64,000 nucleotides of DNA from Alphaproteobacteria bacterium (GTDB lineage: Bacteria; Pseudomonadota; Alphaproteobacteria; JACZXZ01): assembly GCA_035625915.1 (NCBI GenBank), contig DASPOR010000117.1:3700-67699 (forward strand), in the 5' to 3' direction. Every line of letters begins with the position of its first letter. Within the stretch, counting starts at the first letter, position 1. Shown here in pieces: positions 13,242-47,314 of this stretch. Both the position numbers and the translations under genes were made by a program. Under the pieces are notes generated by a model that ran no database searches, was not told the DNA's origin, and saw only the letters and a list, made by a program, of their open reading frames with translations.

Positions 13242-13406
13242 GTGTGGCGAATCCGAAATTCGCCACATCTGGGCGCTGGACCGTGAGCGAATTTCGGATT
13301 CAAAGCCACGCTCGTAATATGTCGTATCTAGTGTGGTATTCGGATTTGAAGTTCCCAAGCGCGGATGCCACCAAAATATGAGAAACTTCAAATCCACCAC
13401 ACTAGG
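13242..13406 (+). repeat. MITE-like two-hairpin interspersed repeat, copy 1
   Basis: agtgtggcgaatccgaaattcgccac...gagcgaatttcggattcaaagccac / ctagtgtggtattcggatttgaagttcc...gagaaacttcaaatccaccacactag. Shares its whole length with copies at 27236, 36960 and 42909. Confidence 0.8.
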
Positions 13407-13617
13407 TCGCGCACCAAACGGAAGGTGAGCGAAATTACGCTTCCTCTTGCCTAAGCTACAAGCTCGTCACCCCAGGGACGAAAATCGCGGTAAGGCTGGA
13501 TCTCCACGAATGAGCGCTCGGTTTCTTGCGCTTATTGCGATCCATGAGTCGTCAGCGCGTGTCGTCGGGTGGAGAACCTGGCTTCGCCGGCAACGAATGC
13601 AGACCGGCCACGCGTCG

Positions 13618-14475
13618 TCAGTCGCCCCCTACGGTCGCCGGTTTTGACTCTGCGTCTACCGGCAAGGCCGGCATGGGCGGGACGAGAAGCTGAGGGTCGA
13701 GACGCACCGTCTGCCAATTCATCCCCCAGTGAAGATGCGGGCCCGTAACGCGCCCCGTTCGACCCATGCGCGCGACCTCCTGGCCCTGGCGCACGTGCTC
13801 TCCCACCTTCACCTCGATCGCCGAGAGATGGAGGAAGATCGAACTCAGGCCGAGGCCGTGATCGATGATGAGCGTGCCGCCTGTCAGGTAAAGGTCGGAC
13901 TCGGCCAGGGTGATGACGCCGTCGGCGGGCGCGCTGAGGGGTGTGCCGACCGGCCCTGCGATGTCGACGCCCATATGGGGCGCGCGCGGCTCCCCATTCA
14001 AGATGCGTTGACTGCCGTAGACGCCGCTAATCGGCCCTTGCACCGGCCAGATGAATCCCGTCTCGAAGAGAGGCTCGCGGATATCGGTGGAGCGCGCCTT
14101 GTTGAGGAGCGCTTGGTCGTCCTGAATGCGCTTCAATATCTCGGGCGGCGGCGTCACCATTGCCGGTGGCAGGCCGTTGATGCGCTGGATGTCGTAGCGA
14201 CGTTGTACGACGGCGAGCACGCGCTCCTCGGTCTCGCCATCCGGATGGCGCACTGTGAGGATCGATTCGGGCTTCGCGTCGCGGTCGAATCCGAAGACAA
14301 AATGCCCATCGTCCGCGACCTTGACCGTTTTGCCGTCGAGCGTCACATCCGCCTTGGGTTCGGTGACCCCGAAGACGAGCCCACCCTGCGTCACTTTCCC
14401 TTCGATGCTTAGCGTGCCAGCAATTGCCGGCGATGCCGCGAGCGAACAAGCGATGACGATCACACGTATATTCAC
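13618..14475 (-). CDS. M23 family metallopeptidase with signal peptide
   Basis: N-terminal signal peptide. HMGVDIAGPVGTP and DHG...HLH...GPHLHW M23 motifs. Confidence 0.8.
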   Translation of the reverse strand: MNIRVIVIACSLAASPAIAGTLSIEGKVTQGGLVFGVTEPKADVTLDGKTVKVADDGHFVFGFDRDAKPESILTVRHPDGETEERVLAVVQRRYDIQRINGLPPAMVTPPPEILKRIQDDQALLNKARSTDIREPLFETGFIWPVQGPISGVYGSQRILNGEPRAPHMGVDIAGPVGTPLSAPADGVITLAESDLYLTGGTLIIDHGLGLSSIFLHLSAIEVKVGEHVRQGQEVARMGRTGRVTGPHLHWGMNWQTVRLDPQLLVPPMPALPVDAESKPATVGGD

Positions 14476-16013
14476 AACAACGATCCTTGCTTGGATTTGA
14501 CTTTATCCTTGGCGCCCGAATGGCTTGGATTTGTTTCGCGCCGGGTACCGGTTTCGGATCGCCGAGGTTCCATCTTGCCGATAACGGCGCCCGCGACGCC
14601 ATCGTGAAACTCGATCGAGACCGCCATTCCTGCCGAAGTGGCGGCGGCCGCGGTGACTGAACCACCCGTCGAGTCGCGGACGAGCGCGTAGCCGCGATCC
14701 AGAACACGCCGGTATGAGAGATTGTCGAGACGCTTGCCGAGCCCATCGATGCGCTCTGCGACGCGATCGAGCAACCGCACAGTCGCCGGACGCAAACGTA
14801 GCGCCAGTCGATCCGTCTCCCGTCCCTGACGCTCGATCTCGGCAAGGAGTTGGGCCTTGCGCAGGCGCGCAGCACTTGCCGAGAATTCCTGCTCCTTCGC
14901 CTTGATGAGCTGCTTGAGCGTGCGGGCGAGATCGGGAAGGCTGCCGAGTCGCTCTTGCCGCCGCGCCACGAAGCCGGTGGCGGCATTCATGAACCGCTCC
15001 GACCAGTCATCGAAACGTTGGCTTGCCTGTTCGAGAAGTCGAACAGGATCGGGCAGGCCGCGCGCGAGACCCTCGAGCCGGCTGCGCCGTTCCTCCACCA
15101 TGCGATTCCATGCCCGGACCAGTCGCTGGCCGTTCTCCATCGTTTGGGCGAGCAGCTCGCCTCGCACCGGTACGGCGATCTCGGCCGCAGCCGTCGGCGT
15201 CGGCGCACGGCGATCGGAGGCGAAATCGATGAGCGTGGTGTCGGTCTCGTGGCCGACTGCGGAGATGAGGGGTATCGCACTCGCCGCAGCAGCGCGCACG
15301 ACAATCTCCTCGTTGAAGGCCCAAAGATCCTCCAGGCTGCCCCCACCGCGCGCAACGATCAGAAGGTCGGGACGTGGAATCGTACCGCCGGATTGGAGGC
15401 GGTTGAAACCTTCAATCGCGCCCGCAACCTGTTCGGCGGCCCCGCTCCCTTGCACCGCGACGGGCCAAAGGATGACTCGGCGCGGAAAGCGATCCGCGAG
15501 GCGATGAAGGATGTCGCGGATCACGGCGCCGGTCGGCGAAGTGACGACTCCAATGACCTCAGGAAGATAAGGGAGTGGTTTCTTGCGCGCCGCATCGAAA
15601 AGTCCCTCGGCCGCGAGCTTTCGTTTGCGATCTTCGAGGAGTTTCAGCAGTGCGCCTTCGCCTGCAAGCTCCATCGTTTCGACGACGAGCTGATATTTTG
15701 AGCGTCCCGGATAGGTCGTGATCCGCCCCGCGCAAACGACCTCCATCCCGTCCTCGGGCTTGAGCCCGAGGCGCGCTGCCGTCCCACGCCAGCATACGGC
15801 GTCGAGAACCGCGTTGGCGTCTTTGAGCGAAAGATAAAGATGGCCGGAGGTATGCCGCTTGAATCCCGATATCTCGCCGCGCACGCGCACATGCTCGAAG
15901 CGATCCTCGAGCGCGCGCTTGAGAAGGGAAGATAGCTCGCTCACCGAGAATTCGGGAAGGTTCGGGAGGAGCGAGGACTCGAGCGAATTTTCCGTCATGA
16001 TCGTCGGACTCAT
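14472..16013 (-). CDS. xseA: exodeoxyribonuclease VII large subunit
   Basis: OB-fold N-terminus (VRVRGEISGFKRHTSGHLYLSLKD), GGGSLEDLWAFN catalytic region and a long coiled-coil C-terminus. The start is taken at MSPTIMTEN rather than the ORF-track start at 16076. Confidence 0.85.
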   Translation of the reverse strand: MSPTIMTENSLESSLLPNLPEFSVSELSSLLKRALEDRFEHVRVRGEISGFKRHTSGHLYLSLKDANAVLDAVCWRGTAARLGLKPEDGMEVVCAGRITTYPGRSKYQLVVETMELAGEGALLKLLEDRKRKLAAEGLFDAARKKPLPYLPEVIGVVTSPTGAVIRDILHRLADRFPRRVILWPVAVQGSGAAEQVAGAIEGFNRLQSGGTIPRPDLLIVARGGGSLEDLWAFNEEIVVRAAAASAIPLISAVGHETDTTLIDFASDRRAPTPTAAAEIAVPVRGELLAQTMENGQRLVRAWNRMVEERRSRLEGLARGLPDPVRLLEQASQRFDDWSERFMNAATGFVARRQERLGSLPDLARTLKQLIKAKEQEFSASAARLRKAQLLAEIERQGRETDRLALRLRPATVRLLDRVAERIDGLGKRLDNLSYRRVLDRGYALVRDSTGGSVTAAAATSAGMAVSIEFHDGVAGAVIGKMEPRRSETGTRRETNPSHSGAKDKVKSKQGSLL

Positions 16014-16068
16014 GTTACAAGACGCCCCGGAATCGAACCAGCGCAATAAGTGAAATCGGGACGGAACC

Positions 16069-46269: not shown

Positions 46270-47076
46270 TGTAGGATGGCGACTGCGGCGTCCCACGGGG
46301 AGAATGCGATCATGCACAGCCACGCTGCGGCACTTTCGCTGCGATCCTACGGCAGCGGCATGCGCACCCACACCCACGCGTTTCATCAGATCGTCCTGCC
46401 GGTATGCGGTACATTGGATGTGCAGATCGGCGACGCCGCGGCCCCGGTTGGGCGTCGCTGCGGCATGGTGATCGTTGGCGGAACCGTACATTCCTTCCGC
46501 GCGCTGGACGAGAATCGCTTCGTCATATTCGATGTGCCGCGCACCAACTTTCTTCCGGACGCGATCGTGGCCCGCGCGTCCCTGTCGCCGTTTTTCGCAA
46601 TCGACGAATCGCTCGAGCAATTCGTGCGCTATCTTGCTTCGATGATGTCTTCGGGCACCCTCGACGACGAGTCGACCTATCACGCCACTGCCTTGTTGGC
46701 CCAATCGATCGGCCGGCTGCCCTCGACCCTCGAACGCCGGGATGGCCCGATCGGGCGGGCCCTCGCGACTATTGATACGAGATATGCCGAAGCATTGACC
46801 GTCGGCGACCTGGCGCGGGCCGCCGGTATGGGTATGAGCGCGTTCCACGCACGGTTCCGACGCGAGACGGGCACCACACCGGCCAATCGCCTCGCACAGG
46901 CGCGCCTCGATCACGCGTCTCGTCTGCTGCGTGAAGGAGACTCGTCGATTGCGGAGGTCGCGCTCTCGGTCGGTTTCTCCGATCAGAGTGCGCTGACGCG
47001 CAGCTTCCGCCGGCGGCGCGGAATCACACCAGCAGCACTGCGCCGCAGGTCGGGTGCCGCGCGTCCGTCATCTTAA
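46270..47076 (+). CDS. AraC-family transcriptional regulator (N-terminal cupin-like domain)
   Basis: C-terminal double HTH (MSAFHARFRRETGTTP...VGFSDQSALTRSFRRRRGITP). The start is uncertain (46141, 46270 or 46306). Confidence 0.7.
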   Translation, partial: CRMATAASHGENAIMHSHAAALSLRSYGSGMRTHTHAFHQIVLPVCGTLDVQIGDAAAPVGRRCGMVIVGGTVHSFRALDENRFVIFDVPRTNFLPDAIVARASLSPFFAIDESLEQFVRYLASMMSSGTLDDESTYHATALLAQSIGRLPSTLERRDGPIGRALATIDTRYAEALTVGDLARAAGMGMSAFHARFRRETGTTPANRLAQARLDHASRLLREGDSSIAEVALSVGFSDQSALTRSFRRRRGITPAALRRRSGAARPSS

Positions 47077-47151
47077 GCGCCGCCGGCGACGAGGCGGCCG
47101 AAGGCCGAGACTCGGCCATCCACGGCTTTCAGCGATTAGGCAGAAGTGCGT

Positions 47152-47189
47152 GGATGCCCGGGTCAAGCCCGGGCTTGACCCGGGCATCC
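47152..47189. repeat. GC-rich REP-like perfect palindrome GGATGCCCGGGTCAAGCCCGGGCTTGACCCGGGCATCC
   Basis: 38-bp perfect inverted repeat seen in the sequence. It translates to the RVKPGLDPGI peptide in spurious ORFs on both strands, which marks an alphaproteobacterial repetitive extragenic palindrome. Confidence 0.6.
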
Positions 47190-47255
47190 ATGTCTTCATT
47201 GCGAGCATGACGATCGGAGAAGGCCGGGGTCGTTTGTCGGACACAACGCACTACC

Positions 47256-47314
47256 GTGCTTTGAATCCGAAATTCGCTCCCGGCCCCGCCCCCTAATGTG
47301 GCGAATTTTGGATA
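47256..47314 (-). repeat. partial (half) copy of the MITE-like repeat, copy 5
   Basis: gctttgaatccgaaattcgctc...gtggcgaatttt matches the first hairpin module of copy 2. It lacks the CTAG termini and the second module. Confidence 0.5.

Follow-up and report, generated by a model that had tools for sequence, protein, structure and literature searches.

The repeat and its surroundings

The subject of this study is a short repeat found in a 64-kb stretch of DNA (64,000 nucleotides of contig DASPOR010000117.1, assembly GCA_035625915.1; hereafter the window), to which identical contigs exist in three metagenomes and whose host is an uncultured alphaproteobacterium. The repeat is 166–167 nt long and consists of hairpin A (about 75 nt), a 13-nt spacer and hairpin B (about 78 nt); each hairpin, or module, is an inverted repeat by itself. 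As described below, copies are missing from orthologous sites in a relative, and the ends, flanks and insertion sites establish that the repeat is a non-autonomous element, mobile and with CTAG as its target. A previous inspection of the window without database searches (the sequence-only reading) had proposed four full copies and a half copy, and all five places were confirmed. Core motifs of 21–23 nt, with up to three mismatches allowed, matched the window 5, 4 and 4 times, as against 0.00 matches expected from dinucleotide shuffles, and a profile hidden Markov model built from about 80 relatives found exactly these five places in the window and no other even at E ≤ 10. Some coordinates had to be moved: copy 1 and the half copy, which is a decayed module A, have the limits given below, and copy 4 ends at 43075, not at 43064.

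13239–13405, + strand: copy 1, full element (nhmmer E 2e-38); module A 13239–13314, spacer 13315–13327, module B 13328–13405
27236–27401, − strand: copy 2, full element in the pgi/mutL spacer (profile match); module A 27401–27327, spacer 27326–27314, module B 27313–27236
36960–37125, + strand: copy 3, best-preserved element (profile E 9e-42)
36960–37034, + strand: module A of copy 3, CTAG-bounded hairpin CTAGTGTGGCGAATCCGAAATTCGC...GCGAACTTCGGATTCAAAGCCACACTAG
37035–37047, + strand: spacer of copy 3, 13 nt, CAATATTTTGTAT (family consensus spacer, CAAnTTTATGATT)
37048–37125, + strand: module B of copy 3, CTAG-bounded hairpin CTAGTGCGGTATTCGGATTTGAAGTTCC...GGAACTTCAAATCCACCACACTAG
42909–43075, + strand: copy 4, full element in the spacer between the convergent secA and accA (profile match)
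47251–47325, − strand: relic, a decayed module A alone (profile match)

Both modules had been described as bounded by CTAG. This holds for copy 3, the only copy in which all four boundary CTAGs are intact; at some boundaries of copies 1, 2 and 4, CCAG, CTCG, CCCG, CGAG or CTGG stands in place of CTAG. Decay has affected the left end (CCAG) and the right end of module A (CTCG) in copy 1, the right end (CGAG) in copy 2, and both the right end (CCAG) and the internal CTAGs (CTGG and CGAG) in copy 4. The copies are not near-identical either, as had been thought, since their pairwise identity is 83–88%. The long internal stems attributed to the two modules were recovered by folding copy 3, both strands of which form two long hairpins (−77.7 and −83.6 kcal/mol as RNA, z about −11; z −10 as DNA). 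The outer ends of the same copy, CTAGTGTGGCGAATCCGAAATTCG and CTAGTGTGGTGGATTTGAAGTTCC (right end reverse-complemented), match at about 14 of 20 positions. As first described, the window copies are short, intergenic in every case, and devoid of coding capacity, no real open reading frame (ORF) being found inside the element. Promoter-like and terminator-like sites were absent from copies 3 and 4, the two copies scanned.

The genes that adjoin copies 2, 3 and 4, named by means of Pfam, are the following.

27398–28819, − strand: pgi, adjoining copy 2
27398–27400, − strand: TAG stop codon of pgi, within the terminal CTAG of copy 2
start at 27221: mutL, on the other side of copy 2
37122–37577, − strand: NUDIX/mutT gene, adjoining copy 3
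37122–37124, − strand: TAG stop codon of the NUDIX/mutT gene, within the right terminal CTAG of copy 3
start at 36899: CHASE2 adenylate/guanylate cyclase gene, on the other side of copy 3
end at 42912: secA, adjoining copy 4
42910–42912, + strand: TAG stop codon of secA, within the left terminal CTAG of copy 4
end at 43085: accA, convergent with secA across copy 4

Two of these spacers have features of their own. Copy 4 is followed by a short, CTAG-containing hairpin, AGCCTGCTAGGCT (43079–43091), before the stop codon of accA, itself a TAG within a CTAG (43085–43088). Upstream of the cyclase gene, two blocks, GTCTATGGCG and CACTTAATATTAGCAT (36900–36945), show no change among the window and four relatives, the rest of the spacer being divergent; they may be a promoter or a regulator site. 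A gene for a Crp-family regulator lies near the cyclase gene.

Empty sites and insertion at CTAG

Presence/absence polymorphism had been set beforehand as the test of mobility. The relative that allows this comparison is represented by two contigs of the Joint Genome Institute (L131 and L132), whose gene order is the same as that of the window over 20 kb and whose NUDIX homologue (P0003) is 86% identical to that of the window; across the relative loci L126–L132 the NUDIX identity is 86–87%, and the nearest NUDIX homologues that bear a family-level name belong to Stellaceae. Three of the four full copies, copies 2, 3 and 4, are missing from the relative at the orthologous sites, where the genes lie much closer together.

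pgi–mutL spacing: 11 bp in the relative (empty in L131/L132), 176 bp in the window (copy 2)
secA end–accA end spacing: 8 bp in the relative (empty in L131/L132), 172 bp in the window (copy 4)
NUDIX–cyclase spacing: 101 bp in the relative, 222 bp in the window (copy 3 absent in L126, L128, L129 and L130)

In addition, there is no copy of the family anywhere in the 20 kb of the relative. In the alignments the junction is always a stop codon: an empty site reads NNN-TAG-flank, a filled one NNC-TAG-[TGTGG...CACAC-TAG]-flank. The base 5' of TAG is C in each of the filled window sites, but T, T and A in the empty ones (C in L130). This pattern fits a requirement for CTAG.

The window and the relative differ at further places. 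The 3.3-kb segment at 44042–47352, between accA and the gene for an HpcH-family aldolase, contains genes for an FAD oxidoreductase (44288–45454, − strand), a HAD hydrolase (45455–46147, − strand) and an AraC regulator (46141–47076, + strand); the two genes that border it are 205 bp apart in L131. The module A relic is situated at the aldolase-side edge of this segment, which L131 lacks. The empty NUDIX–cyclase spacer of L126 carries three to four tandem units of about 14 nt (CACCCCGTCTGCGG / CCCCGTCTATGGCG) at 1960–2040. A copy that follows mutT in a Roseibium metagenome-assembled genome (MAG; L105) was considered as a shared insertion and rejected, because it lies one small gene away and is therefore non-orthologous.

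The same target is seen in the copies found outside the window, the sampling of which is described in the next section. Although the search left the left end unconstrained, CTAG is found there in 87 of 104 full copies, and C precedes TAG in 101 of them. No conservation is seen at the ten positions beyond either CTAG in these 104 copies, so that the boundary of the element lies exactly at CTAG. Tandem copies that have one CTAG in common occur at three loci (L043, L052 and L021). Two loci of former Ochrobactrum species, L009 (Brucella daejeonensis, about 7590–7680) and L014 (B. tritici, 7655–7812), have a third, related hairpin module, CTAGTGGATTTTTCGAATTTGACG...CGTCAAATTCAATCCACTAG, which in L009 is nested exactly in the B-left CTAG; from this nesting, modules seem able to move singly. 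Taken together, the exact CTAG ends, the random flanks, the empty sites at TAG, the nesting at CTAG, the occurrence of copies in both orientations and their homogeneity within genomes (see below) are the grounds on which mobility and CTAG targeting rest. The filled sites conform to C-TA-[G...C]-TA-G, which fits a duplication of TA and a 4-bp duplication of CTAG equally.

In 47 of the 104 full copies (about 45%), a terminal TAG closes an open frame, 300 nt or longer, that enters from the flank. Such sharing of a stop codon involves the A end 28 times and the B end 23 times and hence shows no preference of orientation. As a control, CTAGs outside the element were scored at the same loci: they close such frames in 20.4% of cases, compared with 24.5% for the ends of the element. 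The association with stop codons is thus explained by an inserter specific for CTAG and by where CTAG is tolerated, and is not evidence for a function at the 3' end of genes. CTAG is indeed rare in this DNA. The window has 42 where 221 are expected, a five-fold depletion, with about ten of the 42 lying inside copies of the repeat, and the relative (L131) has 5 where 67 are expected, a 13-fold depletion.

A hairpin family of the Alphaproteobacteria

A scan for the right-terminal 19-mer, with one genome per species, identified at least 120 loci, each taken as a stretch of 8 kb. According to the record titles, they come from Xanthobacteraceae and other Hyphomicrobiales (Brucella/Ochrobactrum, Hoeflea, Mesorhizobium, Phyllobacterium, Nitratireductor, Stappia and Roseibium), as well as from Sphingomonadaceae, Caulobacteraceae, Parvularculaceae, Rhodospirillales, Stellaceae and Micropepsaceae; a locus of Saprospirales (L008) was set aside as a chance match. 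Profile search of the fetched loci and the window gave 143 non-overlapping copies, of which 107 are full length. Length is 166–167 nt in 63 of the 92 copies extracted, and the layout is kept in Hyphomicrobiales, Sphingomonadales, Caulobacterales, Rhodospirillales and Parvularculales. Identity averages 91% within a genome, compared with 69.5% between genomes. Other forms include single modules and versions with a deletion that joins A-left to B-right (L013, L019, L035, L093 and L095). Plasmids are rarely carriers (11 records, all from Roseibium, Labrenzia or Ochrobactrum), and carriage by phages was rejected, there being one true copy in 2.9 million viral contigs. Outside the window, then, the family numbers over 100 further copies, whose ends are CTAG and whose flanks are random, in other genomes; together with the empty sites, they support the proposal, made in the sequence-only reading, of a non-autonomous element resembling a miniature inverted-repeat transposable element (MITE).

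A consensus fold with 43 pairs was derived from 101 full copies. Paired cells amount to 97.0%, compared with 87.3% in shuffles, and pairing falls to 26–46% when the partners are slid by one to three columns. Both sides have changed at 30 of the 43 pairs; cells with a double change number 386, against 105 expected, a value that none of 500 shuffles attained. The outer stem of module A varies by lineage (GTGTCCC/GGGACAC, GTGACCC/GGGTCAC, GTCACCC/GGGTGAC, GTGTGGC/GCCACAC, GTGCAGC/GCTGCAC, GTATGGC/GCCATAC), module B being nearly constant across lineages. Wobble pairs are scarce, G-T accounting for 1.9% of cells (84) and A-C for 1.2% (52). Selection on an RNA strand was rejected on the basis of this asymmetry, which is only slight, and the constraint looks like one that acts at the DNA level, or symmetrically on both strands, rather than on one RNA strand.

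Two other properties of the modules deserve mention. Of the 101 copies, 80 and 81 retain the CcrM methylation motif GANTC (alignment columns 12, 67, 96) in the two arms of module A, its middle base being A, T or G with compensatory change; in copy 3 it is found at about 36970–36974 (GAATC) and 37016–37020 (GATTC). The spacer has a GANTC in 55 of the 101 copies, the window copies being without it. Overall there are 2.2 sites per element, compared with about 0.65 expected. A site for IHF in the spacer was considered and found weak, matches with at most one mismatch occurring in 55 of the 101 copies, as against 22% in shuffles, at scattered positions.

Mechanism, rival explanations and relation to known repeats

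I consider it probable, at roughly three chances in four, that the repeat is a bacterial MITE which combines two related hairpin modules, each bounded by CTAG, and which is mobilized in trans and inserts at CTAG, most likely with duplication of TA. A transposase supplied in trans would recognize an arm motif of about 22 bp, CTAGTGnnnnGAWTYYGAAGTTCS, of which each element has four. The element would be inserted into the rare palindrome 5'-CTAG-3', and the central TA would most likely be duplicated, as in IS630/Tc1-mariner elements. The evidence is best read as transposition of the IS630 type, in which the TA of CTAG would be duplicated, although a 4-bp duplication of CTAG, as in the IS5 group, would leave the identical sequence. 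Duplication would restore C-TAG at both sides, so that a stop codon that follows a C could take up the element with the protein left intact. Stops of this kind would account for much of the small number of CTAGs that these genomes tolerate, and this would explain why a gene's stop codon appears to be shared at one end by about 45% of the family and by three of the window's four copies. A 3' untranslated region (UTR) or an intercistronic spacer, pgi–mutL for example, would gain a double hairpin of great stability from an inserted copy, which may affect the expression of neighbouring genes.

The CTAG preference has precedents among insertion sequences (IS). Passages of PMC2170065, citing Tenzen and Ohtsubo (1991), state that IS630 prefers the TA of 5'-CTAG-3' and that members of its family duplicate TA. 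With IS630/Tc1-mariner elements and their MITEs the repeat shares the CTAG target, terminal inverted repeats, small non-coding copies and insertion in either orientation; it differs in being a dimer of two hairpins with four arm motifs, in being class-wide, and in that no IS630 with matching ends was found. Duplication of CTAG has also been recorded, for a MITE derived from the IS5 group (PMC3189936). MITEPsy1 of Pseudomonas syringae, which is derived from the IS5 group, is unrelated in sequence, is restricted to few pathovars, has an evident parent in ISPsy2 and lacks the two-module hairpins.

Several results weigh against a trans-mobilized MITE. The sequence-only reading had proposed a search for an IS630/Tc1-family transposase with matching terminal repeats. 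No such enzyme was found when all the loci were searched by regular expression and phmmer, which returned two IS copies only, and no coding element with matching ends exists among the 120 right-terminus loci. The two IS are IS630-family members with unrelated ends, TA-GAGCGGGTCATGC... in L047, where the IS stands apart from the element, and TA-GCAGTTTGTCGGACT... in L022. No gene family, RAYT-like genes included, recurs within 400 nt of the copies in the 8-kb loci. For a MITE, it is unusual that layout and length should stay constant over five or more alphaproteobacterial orders. Compensatory change in the outer stem of module A alongside a constant module B points to selection on pairing, and not on one protein-binding sequence common to the two outer ends. 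Finally, the window copies, 83–88% alike and with decayed CTAGs, contain nothing to indicate that the element has been active recently in this genome.

Other candidates for a partner or a carrier were rejected on closer inspection. The solo right termini in L025 and L087, taken as possible IS ends, are truncated copies; the candidate composite in L029 is two separate single-module copies; and the gene between two copies in L116, considered as a transposase, is ssb. The IS of L022 (2192–3471; ends GCAGYYTGTCGGACT, with TA on both sides) has inserted into the CTA at one end of an element copy, an arrangement that parallels the insertions of IS711 in the Bru-RS repeats of Brucella.

A different enzyme would account for some of these points. 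On this explanation, which I regard as quite unlikely, the repeat resembles REPINs: its hairpins would move as single-stranded DNA by means of a vertically inherited, single-copy HUH/Y1 enzyme (RAYT- or IS200/IS605-like), which would read the shape of the hairpin, cleave at CTAG and insert 3' of a target CTAG without true duplication. Pairing preserved by compensation, wobble pairs as few as befits DNA rather than RNA pairing, a tetranucleotide at the foot of each hairpin and the lack of any visible IS-like partner are all in its favour, and stem variants that follow taxonomy, together with the higher identity within genomes, suggest long vertical persistence. Compensatory evolution and class-wide conservation that tracks taxonomy fit a hairpin-reading enzyme of this kind at least as well as they fit a MITE. 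By contrast, RAYT genes are typically flanked by their own REPINs, and no gene recurs beside the copies studied here; RAYT Group 1, the most widespread, is reported to be rare in Alphaproteobacteria (PMC5581495); the tag is CTAG rather than GTAG or CGTC, which the title of PMC3733652 gives as the tags of the two REP super-families; and copies occur in both orientations. In more general terms, the repeat is like REPINs in its long extragenic inverted-repeat hairpins with a conserved flanking tetranucleotide and in forming lineage-specific populations that persist vertically, at least as REPINs are portrayed in parts of PMC3116915 and bioRxiv 10.1101/2022.05.22.493013. It is unlike the REPIN/RAYT system in its exact insertion at CTAG/TAG with apparent duplication, its CTAG tag in place of GTAG and the absence of a RAYT-like neighbour.

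It is improbable that the repeat is a structured element selected by the host, whose double hairpin is kept for a role in the transcript or in DNA (3'-UTR stabilizer, RNase processing site, read-through attenuator, protein-binding or methylation-sensitive DNA site), mobility being only its means of spread. The tight length, the architecture kept across orders, the covarying stems, the retention of GANTC with a variable middle base in both module A arms, the weak enrichment of an IHF-like match in the spacer and the location of about half of the copies directly 3' of stop codons, where they are probably co-transcribed, would agree with such a role. But orientation towards the adjoining gene is random (28 vs 23), the stop-codon association is that of any CTAG, G-U pairs are few, there is no Rfam match, and copies 3 and 4 have no terminator-like T tract. 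Since no orientation is preferred, those two copies are without the features of a terminator or promoter, the window copies are decaying at their CTAGs and the relative lacks copies at all three sites and throughout 20 kb, a host function is not supported.

The trans-mobilized MITE thus retained apparently belongs to an unnamed family, as had been suggested, in so far as this could be tested against Rfam, the presumed Bru-RS1, the pSymB repeats of Sinorhizobium meliloti and strings in the literature. In the 64 kb, Rfam covariance models gave no match at the gathering score and, at E ≤ 10, only chance matches to microRNA hairpins. Six k-mers of the element appear in no relevant paper of the openly searchable literature (subscription journals being outside this search).

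RIME1 and RIME2 of Rhizobiaceae are reportedly intergenic mosaic elements of 108–109 bp with two large palindromes. The profile had no match in 200 kb of S. meliloti pSymB (best E 7.5; the published RIME sequence was not part of the comparison), BLAST found no match on any Rhizobium, Sinorhizobium or Agrobacterium plasmid, and the chvI–exoS spacer of a Sinorhizobium saheli-type contig has no palindromic repeat. Identity with RIME was rejected on account of the pSymB and chvI–exoS results. A 108-bp two-palindrome repeat of pSymB (GTCACAGGGATCCAGC...), likely to be RIME, is unrelated to the window repeat.

Bru-RS1 and Bru-RS2 of Brucella are also repeats of Alphaproteobacteria, palindromic, intergenic and about 100 bp long; they have YTAR sites and are hot spots for IS that duplicate TA (compare the IS in the element terminus in L022); they differ in length, at 103 and 105–106 bp against 166 bp. 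The palindromic repeat 3' of Brucella bp26 (about 105 bp; 3325–3430 in L141) is presumably Bru-RS1, since PMC2266754 credits the bp26 paper with the link between IS711 and Bru-RS, the insertion in that paper reportedly lay in a Bru-RS1 copy, and the size also fits. The profile had no match at E ≤ 10 to this repeat (regions of L140–L142), and identity with Bru-RS1 was rejected accordingly. The bp26 repeat has a core, GAAAAGTGTG..CGGTTTTC, in common with a pSymB repeat (L136, 30046–30163), and the repeats that share it appear to be a different, also widespread, rhizobial family.

Hairpin MITEs of 100–150 nt, often co-transcribed with adjacent genes, are also known in Neisseria (Correia, which duplicates TA) and enterobacteria (ERIC), but these hosts belong to other phyla or classes.

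A more far-reaching idea, which I put forward as unlikely, is that the family is an alphaproteobacterial counterpart of REPINs: a population of hairpins inherited vertically for hundreds of millions of years and served by a conserved transposase, possibly domesticated and present as a single copy, which recognizes hairpin shape together with CTAG. GANTC in the arms would link either the activity of the repeat or its influence on nearby genes to replication and cell-cycle methylation. Dam sites, which gate IS10 and Tn5, offer a parallel for such coupling.

In practical terms, the element gives rise to spurious ORFs in annotation, probably breaks short-read assemblies, and accounts, in the genomes and MAGs of Alphaproteobacteria, for many TAG stops and for many spacers of 170 nt where genes would otherwise abut; the presence or absence of copies could serve as a marker of strains and species. 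The logic of its target site is that a CTAG-specific transposon reaches stop codons as tolerated CTAGs, the stop being restored by the duplication. With its missing transposase, compensatory hairpins and class-wide conservation, the family provides a test case for the persistence of non-coding repeats outside the gamma-proteobacterial REPIN/RAYT system.

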